The notes under the pieces were generated by a model that did not search any database, was not told the origin of the DNA, and saw nothing but the letters and a program-made list of their open reading frames with translations. A program made the translations under genes and the position numbers. Positions 941 to 9,355 of a stretch of 64,000 nt of DNA are shown here, piece by piece. The stretch is from Nitratireductor sp. XY-223. Its GTDB lineage: Bacteria > Pseudomonadota > Alphaproteobacteria > Rhizobiales > Rhizobiaceae. Each line of letters opens with the position of its first letter. Position 1 is the stretch's first letter. The DNA is taken from NCBI RefSeq assembly GCF_004959855.1, contig NZ_SPNT01000009.1, forward strand, positions 54,739 through 118,738, read 5' to 3'.

Positions 941-1585
941 CTATTCGGTTTCGCCCGAGCGGTACTGCAGGGCAAAGCGCACCAGGCTGTTCGGCCCGGC
1001 GAGCCCCAGCTTCTGATTGATGCGCTGGCGGTGGGTCTGCACCGTGCGGTAACTGAGATTGAGCCTCTTGCCAATCTCCCTGCTGGTCAGCGACTGTCCA
1101 ACAAGGTCGAATACGCGGCGCTCCGCCGGGGTCAGGGAACCGACGTCCGGGCCGTCACCCCGCGCTTCGGACGTCGGATCGGGGACCGGCAGGCCCTTGC
1201 CGCCGACGGATGCGCTCAGGTAGAAGACGCCCTTCGGTGTGAGCAGCGCGTTGTGAATCTCGTCGGACGCATCTTCCTTGGCGACGAATGCGCGCGCCCC
1301 AAGTTCCCGGGCTTTCGTCGCGAAGGCGCGGGACGAGTGCATCGATATGATGACGGCGATGAGGGACGGCATGTTGTCCCGTGCCCATTCCAGGACCTGA
1401 TATCCGTCGACACCCGGCATCGCCAGGTCGAGCACGACGACGTCCGGCCGGGTGATCTCGAGGCTGGTGATGCAGGAATTGCCGTCGCTGGCCTCGGCCA
1501 CGACCTCGTGCCCGTCCTCCTCGACGATGCGGCGCAGGCCGGCGCGGAATATCGGGTGGTCATCGGCAATCACGACGCGCTTCAT
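941..1585 (-). CDS. Two-component response regulator, NarL/FixJ (LuxR HTH) family
   Basis: N-terminal REC domain (VIADDHP...VVLDLAMPGVDG) and C-terminal LuxR-type HTH (LTPAERRVFDLVGQSLTSREIGKRLNLSYRTVQTHR); overlaps the upstream kinase stop by a few nt, so an operon. Confidence 0.85.
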   Translation of the reverse strand: MKRVVIADDHPIFRAGLRRIVEEDGHEVVAEASDGNSCITSLEITRPDVVVLDLAMPGVDGYQVLEWARDNMPSLIAVIISMHSSRAFATKARELGARAFVAKEDASDEIHNALLTPKGVFYLSASVGGKGLPVPDPTSEARGDGPDVGSLTPAERRVFDLVGQSLTSREIGKRLNLSYRTVQTHRQRINQKLGLAGPNSLVRFALQYRSGETE

Positions 1586-1586
1586 C

Positions 1587-3500
1587 TCAGCCGGTCCCCG
1601 TTTGCGCCGGCAACCGCACCGGAAAGCTGAAACTGACCTGCGAGCCGGCAGCGTCGGTCCGCATCGTCCATTCGCCGTTCAGGGTCGAGATACGCTGATC
1701 GATAATCAGGTGCCCCAATGACGCCTGACCGTCCTCGGCCCCCGGGCCCTGGCCTGTGCCGTGGCCGTCGTCGCTGATTTCGGCGCAGAGGCGGCCGGCG
1801 CGACTGTAGAAATGCGCCTCGCACGTCCTCGCCCCGGAGTGTTTGGCGATGTTTGAAACCACCTCTTGCGTCACGCGGTAAAGATGCAGCTTCTGCAGGT
1901 CGTCCAGCACATCCTCGGAAACGTCGAGGTCGAGCTCGACCACAATGCCGGTGGTGTCCTCAAGAGTGTTGAACAACTCCTCGATGGCATTGCGCCAGCC
2001 GAGGTGGTCGACGATCGCCGGATGGAGATCGTGCGAGATACGGCGAATGTCGCCGACGACGCCCCTGGAATAGTCGGCCGCCTTCCTGATTTCGGCCTCC
2101 TGCGAGTTGGTCAGGTTTTCGTGGCGCAGGAAGCGGCTCAGCCGGGCGGTGATCGCAAGCAGTCCCTGACCGGCCGTGTCGTGCAGGTCGGCCGCAACGC
2201 GGCGGCGCTCGCCGTCGATCGTCTCGAGCATCTTCCGGTTGACGCCCTTTTGCAGGCGCTCGAGCGCTCCGGCCGAGCGCAGCGCGTCGTTCTCCGCCAG
2301 CCGGATGCGATAGGCGAGAACGAGGGACAGCAACAGCGCATCGAGAAAAATGATGATCTCGAGATAGTGGTCGGACGGTATCAGGTACTTGATCGGCGAG
2401 AGCTGCGAGTCGAGCAGCACCTGCGAGTTCTTGGGAAGCACGATCAGGATCGCCGCCGGGAGCGTGACCAGCAGCAGCGTCGGCAGCAGGACGCGGGCGG
2501 CGCGATGGCCCTGGTAGGCCAGAATGGCCGAGATGACCAGGAAGCCGAGCACACTGAAGCCGACGAAGGCGGTCAGGACGACACGCGCGACCCATGGCGG
2601 AAAAATCAGGAAGACACCACAGACCGGCAGGATCAGCAGCGTCGGGGCGAGGGTGAGGCGAACCAGAAGGGGCTGCCTGCCCTGCGGCCCCTTGAGGAAG
2701 GAATAAAGGACCAGGCCGATAAAGAAGACACCGCAGACCATGCCGAAGTCGAACAGCAAATTCGACACCTCCGGCCAGGCGCCCCACACATAGGCCGGGC
2801 CGACGCCGGTGTAGTAGAGATTGCCGATTAATAGCGCCAGGACGGAGGCTGAATAGAAGACGAAGACCGCCTTGCGGATCAAAATGCCGAGCGACAGGTT
2901 GAACAGGATGATGATGCTGCTGGCGCCGATGACAAAGGCATGTATGAGCATGGCGCCGCGTTCGCGCTGCTCGAACAGGTGACCGTCCAGCAGCCTCGGA
3001 TGGATGGCCAGGGACCGCTCCTGGGCGATGCGTACGAAGATGTCCTTGCCGAGATCGTGCCCGGTGATCATGAAGGCGCTGTGGGTGGCCAGCATGTCGC
3101 GCTCGGGCGCGGCTATCTGGTCGCCGGAGCGGCTGATACGCGTTACCTTGCCGCTTTCCGGATCGCGGGCGTAAAGCGTGAGATCGTCGGCGATCAGGCC
3201 GAAATCGAGGACACCGGGGCCGGGCAGGGGTTCGAGCCGGATCCAGTTGACCGGGCGGCCGAGCGTTGTTGAAAAGCCGGTGATCTGTTCCACGCCGAAC
3301 CGTTCGGCAAGCGCGCCGCAGCAAACATCGTCCAGGGTCGCCGATACCGGCGCATCCGGCAGCAATGTGAAGCGGACCGGACTTCCGACGGTGTTTTCTG
3401 CGGCGATGGCAAGTCCCTGCGCAACCAACAGAAACAACATGGCGAGAAGCCCGCTTCGCAAACAAGTACTCAGCCGATCCCGTAAATGAAACACGTGCAT
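1587..3500 (-). CDS. Sensor histidine kinase with 7TMR-DISM extracellular and 7-TM domains (HisKA_3/HATPase)
   Basis: 637 aa: signal peptide, periplasmic domain, seven hydrophobic helices, then H-box (AADLHDTAGQGL) and ATPase region; immediately upstream of the LuxR-type regulator. Confidence 0.8.
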   Translation of the reverse strand: MHVFHLRDRLSTCLRSGLLAMLFLLVAQGLAIAAENTVGSPVRFTLLPDAPVSATLDDVCCGALAERFGVEQITGFSTTLGRPVNWIRLEPLPGPGVLDFGLIADDLTLYARDPESGKVTRISRSGDQIAAPERDMLATHSAFMITGHDLGKDIFVRIAQERSLAIHPRLLDGHLFEQRERGAMLIHAFVIGASSIIILFNLSLGILIRKAVFVFYSASVLALLIGNLYYTGVGPAYVWGAWPEVSNLLFDFGMVCGVFFIGLVLYSFLKGPQGRQPLLVRLTLAPTLLILPVCGVFLIFPPWVARVVLTAFVGFSVLGFLVISAILAYQGHRAARVLLPTLLLVTLPAAILIVLPKNSQVLLDSQLSPIKYLIPSDHYLEIIIFLDALLLSLVLAYRIRLAENDALRSAGALERLQKGVNRKMLETIDGERRRVAADLHDTAGQGLLAITARLSRFLRHENLTNSQEAEIRKAADYSRGVVGDIRRISHDLHPAIVDHLGWRNAIEELFNTLEDTTGIVVELDLDVSEDVLDDLQKLHLYRVTQEVVSNIAKHSGARTCEAHFYSRAGRLCAEISDDGHGTGQGPGAEDGQASLGHLIIDQRISTLNGEWTMRTDAAGSQVSFSFPVRLPAQTGTG

Positions 3501-3555
3501 TCAATCACTATCATTCAGGTATTGTTACCCTAACACAGCCATTCCGCGACGGAAC

Positions 3556-3593
3556 TACGCATCGGTGCGTACAAAAATACGAACGGATGCGTA
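3556..3593. promoter_or_regulatory. Candidate response-regulator operator: perfect 7-2-7 inverted repeat TACGCAT-cg-GTGCGTA (3556-3571) plus degenerate second 7-2-7 site TACGAAC-gg-ATGCGTA (3578-3593)
   Basis: Read directly from sequence. The heptamer and 7-2-7 arrangement match NarL/FixJ-family operator architecture. Site centres are 22 bp apart. Lies in the divergent intergenic region between the kinase operon and the secreted-protein gene. Confidence 0.45.
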
Positions 3594-3743
3594 TGGCAAA
3601 GCGCGAACTGCCTGAAGATATTTCAAGACAGCACCAGGTTTGGCGGGCGGTTGAAACCGGAGGGGCCAGCCGTGATGCGCGGCCGTCAAATCCTTCCGGG
3701 CCGGCACGCCAGGCACGTTGTCGTCCAAAGGAGGCAGAGCATC

Positions 3744-4106
3744 ATGTGCATTTCAGTTGTCCGCAGAACCGCCGTCGTCGCCGCCTCGGCGATCCTGATC
3801 TCGACCGCTCTTGCGGGAACGGCCCATTCGGGAACCTGCACCATCCTGCAGAAACCCTACAGCACCGCCCAGTATGCGGCCGACAGTTGCTACAATTACG
3901 AGTTCGACTACGTCTATTCCAGCGGTCCGACCAGCGCCGCCGTTCCCTGGGGCTGGTCGAGCGTCAAACTGTGGCAGTCCAATTCCCCCTCCCAGTGCGC
4001 GGCCCTTTCCGCCGATTTCGGGCTGAAGCGCGCGCTCTACGAAGGCAGCCGGCACCTGTGCTGGCACCTTTATCTCAACGGGGCCTACAACCGCTCGAGC
4101 CAGTAA
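3744..4106 (+). CDS. Small secreted cysteine-containing protein (hypothetical), 120 aa
   Basis: Internal ATG at 3744 preceded by AAGGAGG at good spacing; N-terminal signal peptide (RRTAVVAASAILISTALAGTAHS); mature part has 4 Cys; no recognisable family. Confidence 0.6.
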   Translation: MCISVVRRTAVVAASAILISTALAGTAHSGTCTILQKPYSTAQYAADSCYNYEFDYVYSSGPTSAAVPWGWSSVKLWQSNSPSQCAALSADFGLKRALYEGSRHLCWHLYLNGAYNRSSQ

Positions 4107-4198
4107 CGCTTTCAACGATGCGCACCGTTGCGCACCGGACCTGCCGCCGGCGGCCATGCGCCCGTCCGCCGACAATCTGTTCCTGAGGGAGAATCGTC

Positions 4199-4531
4199 AT
4201 GGGATATAAATCGACATTTGCCGCGGTCTTGATGGCCCTGTCCGTTGCTTCATACAGCCCCGCCCTTTCCCAGGCCGGGACGGGCGAACCGATCAGGCTG
4301 GCCCAGGCCACTTACGTGTATTCGTGCGTCGAATATTCAAATCCGCGACAGTTCTTCCTGGTCTACGCGTCATCGCGGGGCGGCTTCCGAACATGCGAAC
4401 TGGTCGGCTTCAGCCTGGCGGAGGCGTATGGGCGGGTCTGCTACTACCTGTCCGCAGGTACGTCGGCGCCCTCGCAATGGCCGCAATATGGCGGCGTGTC
4501 CATGTTCGGCATCGCCATACCGTTGTGCTGA
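4199..4531 (+). CDS. Small secreted cysteine-containing protein (hypothetical), 110 aa
   Basis: SD GAGGGAG before the ATG; signal peptide (STFAAVLMALSVASYSPALSQA); 4 Cys in mature region including a C-terminal Cys; same strand and immediately downstream of the previous small gene. Confidence 0.55.
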   Translation: MGYKSTFAAVLMALSVASYSPALSQAGTGEPIRLAQATYVYSCVEYSNPRQFFLVYASSRGGFRTCELVGFSLAEAYGRVCYYLSAGTSAPSQWPQYGGVSMFGIAIPLC

Positions 4532-6409: not shown

Positions 6410-6979
6410 TCAGGCGTAAGCGACCCGGCCCGTCCACCAGCGGGAAAGGAGGGAATCCAAGGATACGGATCCCGGCCCCTTGACCACCACGTAAACGAGC
6501 GGAAAGACCCAGAACAGCCGCTGATCGATGATCTCGGACGGTTGACCGTTGAAAAGCGTGCCGAGATCGACCCCGTGGCCGGTGACGTCCACATAGGTCT
6601 GCACGAAGATGAAGGCGATCATGCCCGTTGCGCCGATGCGCGAGAACAGGCCGAGAATGACAAGGATCGGCAGGATGAACTCGCCATAGGTGCCGGCGAC
6701 GACCATGAGATGGGTGGTCAGCGGCAGACCGCTGGTCTCGTATCCGGCCGCCTCGAACGCCTTGCCGGCGATCTGGATATAGGCGCCGTCGGAAACCTCG
6801 AAAAACCCGATCAGGCCGTCGCCGACCTTTGTCTTGGCGGAGTTCAGGTAGTAGACGTAGAGCGTCGCGGCGAGGACGAAGCGCGAGAACAGTCCCAGAA
6901 ACCAGCCGTCCGTGGCGCGCTCGATCGCGCCGAATACGCCGTCGTGCAACCGGCGGACCAGATCTATCAGCGATGTCAT
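6410..6979 (-). CDS. DoxX family membrane protein (BufD-like)
   Basis: 189 aa polytopic membrane protein with DoxX-like helices; last gene of the DUF2282-DUF692-DUF2063-DoxX operon. Confidence 0.75.
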   Translation of the reverse strand: MTSLIDLVRRLHDGVFGAIERATDGWFLGLFSRFVLAATLYVYYLNSAKTKVGDGLIGFFEVSDGAYIQIAGKAFEAAGYETSGLPLTTHLMVVAGTYGEFILPILVILGLFSRIGATGMIAFIFVQTYVDVTGHGVDLGTLFNGQPSEIIDQRLFWVFPLVYVVVKGPGSVSLDSLLSRWWTGRVAYA

Positions 6980-6999
6980 TTCAAATTCCCACCTTTAAC

Positions 7000-7803
7000 T
7001 CAGTCACGGGTTGCAATAGCGGTGAAAGCGCCGGCCTCGAGCATTGCGCCAATGGCCGCCGCGAGATCGAAATCCTGGGTCACGGCGGTGGCGGCATCGG
7101 CCGCCTCGCCGAGTGTCCCGCCGTCGATGAGCGCCAGCAGGAATTCCGCGCCGCCCCCGGGCAGTGACCTTACCTCGACATCGAATTCCCGCCGGGTGAC
7201 CAGGCCGTCTTCGGCGTTGCCGGGATCGATTCCGGCCAGATCCGCGCCGGAGCGGTTGGCCGAGAAGATGGACACGGCGGCGAAACGCGACCGCAGGATT
7301 CGTGTCGCCGGGTGTGCAATAAAGCGCTGATCCGCCAGTTCCTCGGGAGCAATCGCCGCGAGCGCGGCTGAATCCAGCGGCGGCGCGTCGGCGGCGTGGA
7401 AAGCGTGCAGCCAGGCACGCTCCAGACGCGCCACGTCGGGCAGGTAGGCCAGCTCTCTCACCGGCTCGAAACGTTCCAGGAATTCAGCGAAATCCCCGCC
7501 GTATCGAAACAGCAGCGGCGATTGCGGCTGGCGTTCGCGCACGTAGCTGCGCGCCATGGCGCGAAAGAATTCGTCACCGACAAGCCGGTGAATGGCCGGG
7601 TAGATGTCGAAGAGCGCGCCGATCAGTCCGACCGTGACGTTGTTGCGATAGACATTATACCGCTTGTCCGCCTTCTTGCCGTTCGGACCGACAAGGCCCG
7701 CGGGCGTCGGCTGACCGGGATCCAGCAGGGCGCCCGAGAACCGGCCCAGCGTCACCGCCGATTCTGACTCTCCGGCATCGCCGATGTTATCCGGCCGCGG
7801 CAT
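7000..7803 (-). CDS. DUF2063 domain protein (BufC-like partner of the MNIO enzyme)
   Basis: Characteristic DUF2063 sequence (NVYRNNV, LRERFP..AYLPDVARLERAW). The start is uncertain: ATG at 7803 overlaps the DUF692 stop by ~16 nt, and the longer in-frame start at 7896 is the alternative. Confidence 0.7.
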   Translation of the reverse strand: MPRPDNIGDAGESESAVTLGRFSGALLDPGQPTPAGLVGPNGKKADKRYNVYRNNVTVGLIGALFDIYPAIHRLVGDEFFRAMARSYVRERQPQSPLLFRYGGDFAEFLERFEPVRELAYLPDVARLERAWLHAFHAADAPPLDSAALAAIAPEELADQRFIAHPATRILRSRFAAVSIFSANRSGADLAGIDPGNAEDGLVTRREFDVEVRSLPGGGAEFLLALIDGGTLGEAADAATAVTQDFDLAAAIGAMLEAGAFTAIATRD

Positions 7804-8710
7804 GGCGGCTCCCCAGCAGATAGTTCGCGGACCGTTTTTCCAGGATGCCTTCGGCGCGCAGCGCCTCGCGCCGCAGGACCGGCCATTCGGGAACATCGTT
7901 GTCCCATTCGATCAGTGTCGGAACCGGCCCCATCTGGCCGATGACGATGTCGTAGAGCTTCCACACCTCGTCATCGACGGGACGGTCGTGGGCGTCGATC
8001 AGCAGCGGATCGCCCTCGTCGTCGATATCGGTGGCATGGCCGGCAAGGTGTATCTCCTCGACCTTTTCCAGCGGGAACTGCGAGAGATAGGTCAGCGGCC
8101 TGTATTTCTGGTTGGTGGCGGAAACGAAGACATTGTTGATGTCGAGCAGCAGCCCGCAGCCCGTGCGCCGGGCGATCTCGGATATGAATTCGGTCTCGCT
8201 CATCGACGATTGCTCGAACTGCACGTAGGTCGACGGGTTTTCCAGGATGATCGTGCGGCCGAGCACATCCTGCACGCGCTCGATATGCGCGCACACGCGG
8301 TCGAGGGTTGCCCGGTCATAGGGGACCGGCAGCAGGTCGTTGTAGTAGCTCGTATCGTGGGTGGACCAGGCGAGATGCTCCGATACGAGGCCCGGTTCAT
8401 AGCGGTCGACAACGCGCTTGAGGCGCGCAATGTGTTCCTCGTCGAGGCCTTTTTCGCTGCCGATAGACAGGCCGACACCGTGAACGGAGAGCGGGAAATT
8501 CTGGCGAATCGCTGTCAGTGCCCTGTGCGGTGCGCCGCCGTCGCCCATATAGTTTTCGGCGTGCACTTCCAGAAAGCCGATGCGGTAGTCGTCCTGCAGA
8601 ATCTGGTCGATATGGGACGGCTTCAGACCGGCCCCGGCGCGTGCGGGAATGGTGCGGTCCGTGAAGTCCGCATTCGCGTTGCCGTCCCTCCAGGTGGGAA
8701 TGTCTGTCAT
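7787..8710 (-). CDS. DUF692 / MNIO (multinuclear non-heme iron oxidative) enzyme, BufB-like RiPP maturase
   Basis: 307 aa with DUF692/UPF0276 TIM-barrel features (GLKPSHIDQIL, FLEVHAENY, HGVGLSIGS, EHLAWS, LENPSTY); sits directly downstream of a Cys-rich precursor gene. Confidence 0.8.
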   Translation of the reverse strand: MTDIPTWRDGNANADFTDRTIPARAGAGLKPSHIDQILQDDYRIGFLEVHAENYMGDGGAPHRALTAIRQNFPLSVHGVGLSIGSEKGLDEEHIARLKRVVDRYEPGLVSEHLAWSTHDTSYYNDLLPVPYDRATLDRVCAHIERVQDVLGRTIILENPSTYVQFEQSSMSETEFISEIARRTGCGLLLDINNVFVSATNQKYRPLTYLSQFPLEKVEEIHLAGHATDIDDEGDPLLIDAHDRPVDDEVWKLYDIVIGQMGPVPTLIEWDNDVPEWPVLRREALRAEGILEKRSANYLLGSRHAAAG

Positions 8711-8791
8711 CGGATGTCCTGCGCCTTTACGCCCTTACGCATGAGACCGGCCGCCCGCAATTCCAGGCAGCCGGCCGGTATTCAGCCAGAA

Positions 8792-9094
8792 TCAGGCAGG
8801 AATGTCGCGATCGAGCGGCTCAAGCGATCCAACGCGTCCGCCCGGCAGTTCCATCGTTGCGCATGTGCCGTTTTCAACCAGCTTCCAGGCATTGCCCTGA
8901 TAGTCGACGGTCGATGTGCCGGCGCAGGTGGTTCCGGGACCGGCCGCGCAGTCGTTCTGACCGGCCAGCGAGACGCCGTAGCATTTTTCCTTGGCGGAAG
9001 CGGCGGTCGTCGATGCAACAAGGGTCGCGCCCGAAAGGGCCATGGCGACGGCACCGGCAACAGCGGAAGCGCCAACAAGTGTTTTCTTGGACAT
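8792..9094 (-). CDS. DUF2282 family precursor peptide (bufferin-like, BufA-type): Sec signal peptide plus Cys-rich core
   Basis: ATG at 9094 preceded by AAGGAGA; [34 protein letters not shown] signal; core [26 protein letters not shown]...GTCATMEL with 4 Cys and the CYGV / NDCA motifs typical of DUF2282. Confidence 0.75.
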
Positions 9095-9355
9095 GGGATT
9101 CTCCTTGGGAGTTCGGAATTTAGGTGGTGACACTTTTCGTTCCCCGGTTGTCGCCGGGACGAGCGGAGTTTCTGAAAATCGCGGATAAATTGGAAATCAA
9201 CAGCGTGTTATCTCCTGTCGTTGTCGCGTGACATTCCCGTTACGGAATGCGGCCTCAAACTCAACGCGGAGCGTTTTCAGTCAATTACGTGCGGAACAAC
9301 CGGGATCCGAACCGCTTTTTTCCCGGTCGGCAACCACGCGTTACAGGTTACTGTC

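Follow-up and report, generated by a model that had tools for sequence, protein, structure and literature searches.

We analysed a 64,000-nucleotide stretch of the genome of Nitratireductor sp. XY-223 (hereafter the window), in which the genes of a two-component system are transcribed divergently from two genes for small exported proteins and a tandem of inverted repeats lies in the intergenic region between them. The response regulator gene (941-1585, minus strand) encodes 214 amino acids (aa) with a receiver domain (REC) and a GerE/LuxR-type helix-turn-helix (HTH), and the sensor histidine kinase gene (1587-3500, minus strand) encodes 637 aa with 7TMR-DISM_7TM, HisKA_3 and weakly matching HATPase_c domains. 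On the plus strand, the genes designated here as small1 (3744-4106) and small2 (4199-4531) encode precursors of 120 and 110 aa, respectively, each with four Cys residues in its mature part. The distance between the kinase ATG and the small1 start is 244 bp. These gene calls agree with the initial annotation, both in coordinates and in the divergent arrangement of the two gene pairs. Only 1 nt separates the end of the kinase gene from the regulator start, so that the two genes form one operon, and they are probably translationally coupled. It should be noted that the kinase might start at GTG 3494, a codon conserved in a close relative of the locus (L002, see below) in which the ATG is lost.

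The kinase consists, in order, of a signal/first transmembrane segment, a periplasmic domain of ∼150 aa, a seven-transmembrane (7TM) block (residues 184-398), HisKA_3 (residues 431-495) and HATPase_c. It matched PF07695 (7TMR-DISM_7TM) with 68 bits (cut-off 29) over profile positions 2-205 of 205 and PF07730 (HisKA_3) with 39.4 bits (cut-off 24). PF02518 (HATPase_c) reached 22.4 bits, short of its gathering threshold (26.4); matches to this family were present in 27 of the 31 homologues. H440, N550 and G596 were all invariant in the 31-member homologue alignment. The protein had been described before as a sensor with both extracellular and 7TM domains of the 7TMR-DISM type. The second part of this description is borne out by the 68-bit match of the 7TM block, whereas the first holds by homology only: the window kinase gave no match to PF07696 (DISMED2) at E<=0.01. 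Because 26 of the 31 full-length homologues match DISMED2, aligned over the same N-terminal region, the periplasmic domain could be regarded, on homology, as a divergent DISMED2 domain.

The assignment of the partner protein to LuxR/FixJ-family regulators was confirmed by scores above cut-off for both REC (PF00072, 86.7 bits versus 30.2) and HTH (PF00196, 42.8 bits versus 23.5), and the residues D8, D9, D53 and K103 could be read directly from the translation. The top matches among PDB sequences were NarL, EvgA and RcsB, the closest solved structures being EvgA (E = 5e-22) and NarL. Among NCBIfam models, MctS/MctR, UhpB, NarL and EvgA were nearest to the kinase transmitter and the regulator, all of them far under the equivalog cut-offs. 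An orthologue of NarL or NarP was considered and rejected, as the regulator scored 85.8 bits for NarL (cut-off 250) and 69.6 bits for NarP (cut-off 343). Judged by these scores, it appears to be a protein that works like NarL but is not NarL. Orthologous regulators in the related loci described below are 39-65% identical (that of L036 ends at a contig edge and was not aligned), and the recognition helix, RT[VI][QH][TS]HR, is kept in them.

Two putative operator sites, neither assigned to a strand, were identified between the divergent genes. Site 1, proximal to the kinase gene, occupies 3556-3571 (TACGCATCGGTGCGTA), and site 2, proximal to the small genes, occupies 3578-3593 (TACGAACGGATGCGTA) and keeps 11 of 12 consensus positions. 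The initial annotation had presented the former as a perfect 7-2-7 inverted repeat, which needs correction: in TACGCAT-CG-GTGCGTA the second heptamer reads TACGCAC on the opposite strand, the seventh positions are T and G, and only the outer six positions pair. Site 1 is hence a perfect 6-4-6 repeat, with six of seven pairs when it is read as 7-2-7 (the innermost being T/G), and site 2 (TACGAAC-GG-ATGCGTA) has five of seven. The degenerate second site that had been placed 22 bp away was found there, exactly 22 bp from site 1 start to start. Perfect 7-2-7 sites were seen in two relatives, one of them being site 1 of L002 (TACGCATCGATGCGTA), an 84%-identical relative. In the 64 kb of the window, the pattern TACGCA-N4-TGCGTA at up to one mismatch had two matches, namely sites 1 and 2, where 0.07 were expected, and none of 100 shuffles reached two. 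When two mismatches were allowed, two further sites appeared in the window. A candidate third site in the gap between small1 and small2 (4119-4134, TGCGCACCGTTGCGCA), a perfect 6-4-6 repeat with two mismatches to the pattern, had no conserved counterpart in either L001 or L002; we set it aside as probably a chance occurrence.

To examine relatives of the system, loci (L numbers below) were fetched from genomes and metagenomes with a profile of ∼30 kinase homologues; the metagenome scan with the kinase profile added only one further full-length relative. A tandem of the same 16-6-16 architecture was found upstream of kinase-regulator pairs in L002, L004, L005, L007, L008, L011, L012, L036, L037 and L038. 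With the exception of the close relative L002, the kinases of these loci are only 28-44% identical to that of the window and their regulators 41-65%, and the tandem accompanies kinase-regulator pairs over ∼8 lineages. Given as distal and proximal site, it reads TACGCACGCTTGCGTA and TAGGTAACGATGCGTA in L004, TACGCATGCTTGCGTA and TGAGTAACAGTGCGTA in L037, TACGCATAAGTACGTG and TGCGTATAAATGCGTA in L038, TACGTATATGTACTTA and TACGTACATGTACGTA in L036, TCCGCCACATTGCGTA and TACGCAAGGTTGCGTA in L012 (the second site being the other perfect 7-2-7 case), TCCGCAACCTTGCGCA and TAAGCAAGGATGCGTA in L011, TCCGGAGACCTTCGTA and TACGCTCTACTGCGGA in L007, and TCCGCAGACTTTCGTA and TACGCTCTACTGCCGA in L008. Variant half-sites are present in L005 (TCGGCACAAGTGCGCA and TAAGCACTTGTACTTA), and one perfect site with a weak partner in L039 (TAGGCACAAGTTCATT and TACGCATGTGTGCGTA). 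The spacing of 22 bp is invariant in 12 loci. As a control, we counted tandem pairs scoring at least 9/12 in each site over 392 kb (the window plus the loci): 12 pairs had a spacing of 22, none had any other spacing from 16 to 38 and one had a spacing of 39.

The tandem was absent from L003, L034 and L035, which hold the three closest kinase relatives (∼52% identical); these kinases are orphans, with no regulator gene adjacent. This absence provides the best available argument that the site is used by the adjacent regulator. In addition, a tandem-like element was observed in L006 (4730-4767) and in L040 and L041 (8730-8767 in both), where it lies between genes for exported proteins a few kilobases from the kinase gene. 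In these three loci the element lies between the gene for a secreted protein of 349-367 aa and its neighbour, and the kinase gene is followed by that of a PDZ-Sel1-PG_binding protein and not by a regulator gene. As the element lies there between exported-protein genes, it appears to mark non-kinase targets as well.

These data also bear on whether the palindromes might be bound by some other transcription factor, might have arisen by chance or might form a hairpin of an RNA or a terminator. The heptamer consensus of NarL is TACYYMT, and the half-site TACGCAT departs from it at one position (a 6/7 match), which would be compatible with a different factor. However, chance is excluded by the shuffles and the spacing control, and the co-occurrence with kinase-regulator pairs, together with the absence from kinase loci that lack a regulator, points to the cognate regulator. 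A 16-bp palindrome is also the footprint expected of a dimer of LuxR-type HTH domains. As for a hairpin, the element is upstream of both predicted transcription starts (see below) and hence would not be transcribed. Explanations of this kind are therefore very improbable.

As a separate observation on the orphan kinases, those of L003, L034 and L035 adjoin LysR and Sbt_1 genes (with P-II in L034 and L035). In place of the tandem, L003 (4870-4950) and L034 (upstream of 4001) share the upstream block GGCGCAAyTGCGTTGCCATGCGCAGTGTTTGGGTATGAAATC, and the corresponding region of L035 (upstream of 4001) is more diverged.

Both small proteins have Sec-type N-termini, with likely cleavage predicted between AHS and GTC in small1 and between SQA and GTG in small2. 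The mature part of small1 is ∼91 aa (Cys 32, 49, 85 and 106) and that of small2 ∼84 aa (Cys 43, 66, 81 and 110, the last being the final residue); each carries exactly four Cys, just as had been noted for these two signal-peptide proteins. No match to either protein was found in Pfam, NCBIfam or PDB sequences. In a collection of 5.8 billion proteins, each had only two relatives, in L001 and L002. L001 is a near-identical contig with the same synteny, and L002 is a contig of 1.9 kb whose small proteins are 84-85% identical to those of the window. A HMMER search with small1 against 1.84 billion cluster representatives returned its own cluster only, besides P0051; the latter is a 1795-aa translated tandem repeat whose score came from 30 weak stretches, and it was rejected as a homologue. 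For small2, a remote homologue was detected in L037 (L037_117; BLASTP 2e-9), in which the four Cys, the C-terminal Cys and the terminal pattern WPQ...FGI.I..C are conserved; it is encoded by the third gene of an operon divergent from a 41%-identical kinase. The two proteins had both been called orphans, which is strictly true for small1 only, since small2 has this syntenic remote homologue. Apart from the latter pair, no homology could be observed between small1 and small2 or between either of them and the small proteins of other loci.

Between the window and L002, the mature part of small1 had a ratio of non-synonymous to synonymous substitution (dN/dS) of 0.03 with a dS of 0.93, and that of small2 a dN/dS of 0.08 with a dS of 0.63. 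The small proteins are thus real, and purifying selection on their mature parts is very strong, with drift in the signal peptides, a pattern typical of exported proteins that are functional. The possibility of an island acquired by horizontal transfer was rejected, because the GC content of the small genes (0.62) matches that of their surroundings. The small1 start used above is preceded by the Shine-Dalgarno (SD) sequence AAAGGAGG. An alternative start is GTG 3672, in frame and preceded by SD GGAGG at 3659-3663; from there the precursor would have 144 aa and its n-region would be long and basic. Over 3672-3743, the small1 frame showed five synonymous and four non-synonymous codon differences and an in-frame 3-nt indel between the window and L002, whereas the other two frames showed zero or one synonymous versus eight or nine non-synonymous differences. 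Because this pattern fits the small1 frame, small1 may start at GTG 3672. The longer precursor would contain a conserved RR within a QRRQSI motif, which might indicate Tat export.

A scan for sigma-70 consensus elements gave nothing useful in the intergenic region, and the promoters emerged only from conservation across loci. On the kinase side, a TAnnnT hexamer was present 22-23 nt past the kinase-proximal site in 11 of the 12 loci, with a TG extension in nine of those. In the window it forms the predicted extended -10 element TGtTAGGGT (3527-3535, minus strand), with a predicted start at ∼3520 and no good -35. On the small-gene side, loci with a close divergent small gene have an xAxxxT hexamer 23 nt past the distal site: GATATT in the window and L002, AATTAT in L004, AACTAT in L037 and TATCTT in L012. 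The window copy is the predicted -10 of the small1-small2 promoter (3617-3622, plus strand), 23 nt after site 2, with a predicted start at ∼3629. The centre of site 1 would lie at ∼-43.5 from the predicted kinase promoter and ∼-65.5 from the predicted small-gene promoter, and from the hexamer offsets on the two sides it follows that each site would be at ∼-43 for one promoter and ∼-65 for the other.

Comparison of the window with L002 gave a footprint of this region, against a background of synonymous divergence (dS) of 0.6-0.9 in the small genes. The operator block was 47/50 identical. The kinase -10 block was 18/19 identical, and its adjoining DNA 14/26 and 3/9. The small-gene -10 block (3615-3624) was 10/10 identical, and the spacer preceding it 9/16. 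Thus, conservation covers exactly the operator and both -10 elements, in contrast to the decayed intergenic DNA on their flanks. Downstream of the small-gene -10, a leader block of 47 nt (3625-3671, plus strand), which includes the SD GGAGG, was also conserved (44/47), although synonymous positions in its vicinity are near saturation. It had no Rfam match at E<=1, and its predicted fold was no better than that of shuffled sequences (z = -1.5). A sigma-54 or extracytoplasmic function (ECF) promoter within this leader (TTGGCGGGCGGTTGAAA) was considered and rejected: on visual inspection, neither the GG-to-GC spacing nor the -12 element agrees with such a promoter, and the regulator does not belong to the NtrC-type activators.

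Taking these results together, we consider it probable that the adjacent NarL/FixJ-type regulator has its operator in the 38-bp element at 3556-3593, and that this element forms the core of a bidirectional promoter from which both sides are activated. In such a circuit, a periplasmic or envelope cue would be sensed by the DISMED2/7TM kinase, which would phosphorylate the regulator at D53. Two regulator dimers would each occupy one 16-bp palindrome and, given that 22 bp is about two turns, would lie on one face of the DNA, with site 1 ∼43 bp upstream of the kinase-regulator transcript start and site 2 ∼43 bp upstream of the small1-small2 start. The phosphorylated regulator would then activate both promoters from a class-II-like position, and the outcome would be positive autoregulation together with induction of two disulfide-bonded exported proteins. 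By analogy, the most likely role for small1 and small2 would be that of a CpxP-like periplasmic effector or feedback partner of an envelope response. The initial annotation had suggested that the regulator controls the secreted proteins, its own operon or both, and comparative genomics, within the limits of sequence data, supports this suggestion; autoregulation appears to be the conserved part, and the small genes a lineage-specific one.

Several observations weigh against this activator model. Sequence does not separate activation from repression. The small-gene -10 is weak, and the corresponding hexamer is less clear where the divergent gene is distant (L011, L036 and L039). The leader block at 3625-3671 might reflect a further, or a different, control over the small genes. 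Some more distant kinase relatives (L009, L010, L013, L023 and L042) are without the tandem and L014 has a single site only, and L006, L040 and L041 have the element at a different promoter instead of in front of the kinase gene. Finally, AlphaFold models of the small proteins were poor, with a pLDDT of 40 for small2 and 59.6 for small1 (in one of five models), Foldseek searches of PDB with these models gave no match under E = 2, and the periplasmic role is a guess by analogy.

With regard to the sign of regulation, the same operator might serve its cognate regulator as a repressor site, the regulator occluding both promoters until a signal relieves repression. An extended -10 promoter needs no activator-supplied -35 contact, and the conserved TGn motif would agree with silencing of an otherwise constitutive promoter. 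In the case of frdA, NarL itself acts as a repressor, through a 7-2-7 site of high affinity (PMC4549865). However, that site lies at -4/+6 (PMC4549865), and the usual place of NarL-type repression overlaps the -10 or the start, which the sites near -43 and -65 do not. The symmetric placement at ∼-43 for each promoter corresponds instead to the activating positions of 7-2-7 sites, as NarL activates napF and yeaR from such sites at -40 to -49 and -38 to -47, respectively (PMC4549865). We therefore regard repression as unlikely.

The operator might also serve only for autoregulation of the kinase-regulator operon, with small1 and small2 under an independent promoter and adjacent by an accident of insertion. 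The element stays with the two-component system irrespective of which genes lie opposite, the neighbours are non-homologous, the -10 of the small genes is weak and their conserved leader might provide some other control, all of which would be in line with independent promoters. On the other hand, the GATATT block is fully conserved (10/10) next to a decayed spacer, and it lies at the same 23-nt offset as the hexamers of L004, L037 and L012. Moreover, the second site is kept in every locus, although one dimer site would suffice for one promoter, and the tandem at a promoter between exported-protein genes away from the kinase in L006, L040 and L041 suggests that the element serves non-kinase targets. 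An independent promoter for the small genes thus seems improbable.

The divergent neighbours of the system in related loci were mostly exported proteins and non-homologous between lineages. The slot is occupied by small Cys-rich proteins (L004 and L037), by small lipoproteins ending in poly-Gly (L010, L011, L012 and L038), by an RTX-like protein (L005) and by PDZ-Sel1 proteins (L007 and L008); the exceptions were L036, with a DoxX membrane protein, and L039, with no clear divergent gene. Co-occurrence with the two-component system was therefore found for the operator tandem (∼8 lineages) and not for the small genes, whose place in relatives is taken by other exported proteins. Judged from this distribution, small1 and small2 are best seen as lineage-specific envelope cargo and autoregulation as the conserved feature.

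Two groups of these neighbours could be described further. A Cys-rich secreted protein of ∼200 aa (CMYLGQPDHPICTDTPEVCTCDDG...) is 86% identical between L004 (3760-4356) and L037 (3223-3888), while the other divergent small genes of these loci differ, which shows that the cargo genes turn over rapidly. The poly-Gly lipoproteins (L011:3538-3843; L012:626-1063 and 1200-1643; L038:3396-3803; L010:3866-4198; L006:4858-5292) have a lipobox Cys, a Lys/Arg/Glu-rich stretch and a poly-glycine tail such as GGGGEGGGGGGGD. They recur beside relatives of the two-component system, often in the divergent slot, and homology among them was detectable only between that of L011 and L012_145.

It had been proposed that the small proteins could be bacteriocin-like factors or signalling peptides. 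In its fuller form, this idea would make small1 and small2 toxins, or diffusible signals sensed by the DISMED2 kinase in an autoinducing loop. The proteins are small, secreted, Cys-containing and lineage-restricted, and their mature parts are strongly conserved. Peptide quorum-sensing loci resemble an autoregulated two-component system beside regulator-controlled secreted products, and the layout of the present locus may be compared with them by analogy. Nevertheless, no specific support for either guess was obtained: no immunity, processing or maturation-protease, or dedicated export gene adjoins small1 and small2. For signalling peptides, mature sizes of 84-91 aa behind ordinary Sec signals would be large, and the lipoproteins, RTX-like and PDZ-Sel1 proteins in the slot of relatives are unfit for one ligand family. 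Toxins or diffusible signals are accordingly quite unlikely.

It is likewise doubtful, and we would give it only a small chance, that DISMED2 kinases have their own divergent exported proteins as ligands or co-sensors, sensing the level or the folding or redox state of the protein they induce. Examples would be small1 and small2, the Cys-rich proteins of L004 and L037 and the Gly-tailed lipoproteins of L011, L012, L038 and L010. If true, alphaproteobacteria would have an autoregulatory or autoinducing loop that is based on a protein, with swappable cargo retuning the input of a conserved sensor and operator.

With the activator model as the preferred reading, the system was compared with characterized ones. 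It resembles NarX/NarL in combining a HisKA_3 kinase with a REC/LuxR-HTH regulator and in its heptamers, which are inverted and lie 2 bp apart; the NarL dimer binds to 7-2-7 sites and prefers this arrangement, and the predicted site centre of ∼-43 is as at napF and yeaR (PMC4549865). In contrast, its sensor part is 7TM plus a putative DISMED2 and not the four-helix nitrate sensor of NarX, the NCBIfam scores for NarL, NarX and NarQ are far under cut-off, and no link to nitrate genes was seen. Its two sites at a fixed 22-bp phasing inside a bidirectional promoter are a further difference. In Escherichia coli, cpxP is divergent from cpxRA and shares CpxR boxes with it, and the likeness here would lie in the autoregulation of an envelope two-component operon, in the divergent gene for a small, probably periplasmic product and in shared sites serving both directions. 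However, CpxR is an OmpR-family regulator acting on direct repeats, CpxA does not belong to the 7TM sensors, and neither small1 nor small2 is similar to CpxP or Spy; feedback inhibition of the kinase would be an analogy only.

RetS and LadS of Pseudomonas aeruginosa share the 7TMR-DISM membrane block and, as far as homology indicates, the periplasmic DISMED2 with the window kinase, but they are hybrid kinases with HisKA instead of HisKA_3 that act via GacS and Rsm RNAs and have no dedicated LuxR-type regulator with an adjacent operator. The best NCBIfam matches were to the MctS/MctR system, comparable with CrbS/CrbR (ErdR), with 120.6 bits for MctS (kinase transmitter) and 119.8 bits for MctR (regulator), far under the equivalog cut-offs of 700 and 300 bits, respectively. 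The sensors of MctS and CrbS resemble solute symporters. As the match to MctS is confined to residues 417-628 of the window kinase, the sensor half of the latter is unrelated, and the locus has no transporter target gene. EvgA binds an inverted repeat with a 2-bp centre and, as mentioned above, is the closest solved structure to the window regulator, whereas EvgS is a hybrid sensor of the periplasmic-binding-protein type and the half-sites of the two systems are unrelated in sequence.

When the literature was searched for the motif and for a connection between 7TMR-DISM and NarL, only primer sequences or unrelated systems were returned. The system is a previously uncharacterized example of a well-known kind of circuit, probably an autoregulated NarL-type two-component system with CpxP-like divergent exported cargo, and its value is incremental because the circuit logic of autoregulation plus a divergent periplasmic target is textbook knowledge. 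If confirmed, it would provide the first operator motif and promoter geometry for the family of DISMED2/7TM-HisKA_3 kinases with LuxR-type regulators in Hyphomicrobiales. The motif TACGCA-N4-TGCGTA, doubled at 22 bp and located at ∼-43 from divergent promoters, could then be used for regulon prediction in Hyphomicrobiales genomes. The recurrent pattern of small, rapidly replaced exported proteins in a regulated divergent slot also offers candidate inputs or feedback partners of DISMED2 sensors.

Beyond small2, at a distance of ∼1.9 kb, we observed a complete operon of the bufferin type (6410-9133, minus strand), a family of ribosomally synthesized and post-translationally modified peptides (RiPPs) processed by MNIO enzymes (PMC11626156). 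No operator-like site was found at this operon. It contains genes for a DUF2282 precursor (8792-9133), an MNIO enzyme of the MbnB/TglH/ChrH type (7787-8710), a DUF2063 protein (7000-7896) and a DoxX protein (6410-6979). The possibility that small1 and small2 are themselves bufferin or MNIO precursors was rejected, as neither matches DUF2282 and the true DUF2282 precursor has an operon of its own. Other neighbours of the locus encode an alpha/beta hydrolase (Hydrolase_4), an Hsp20 protein and an inositol monophosphatase.

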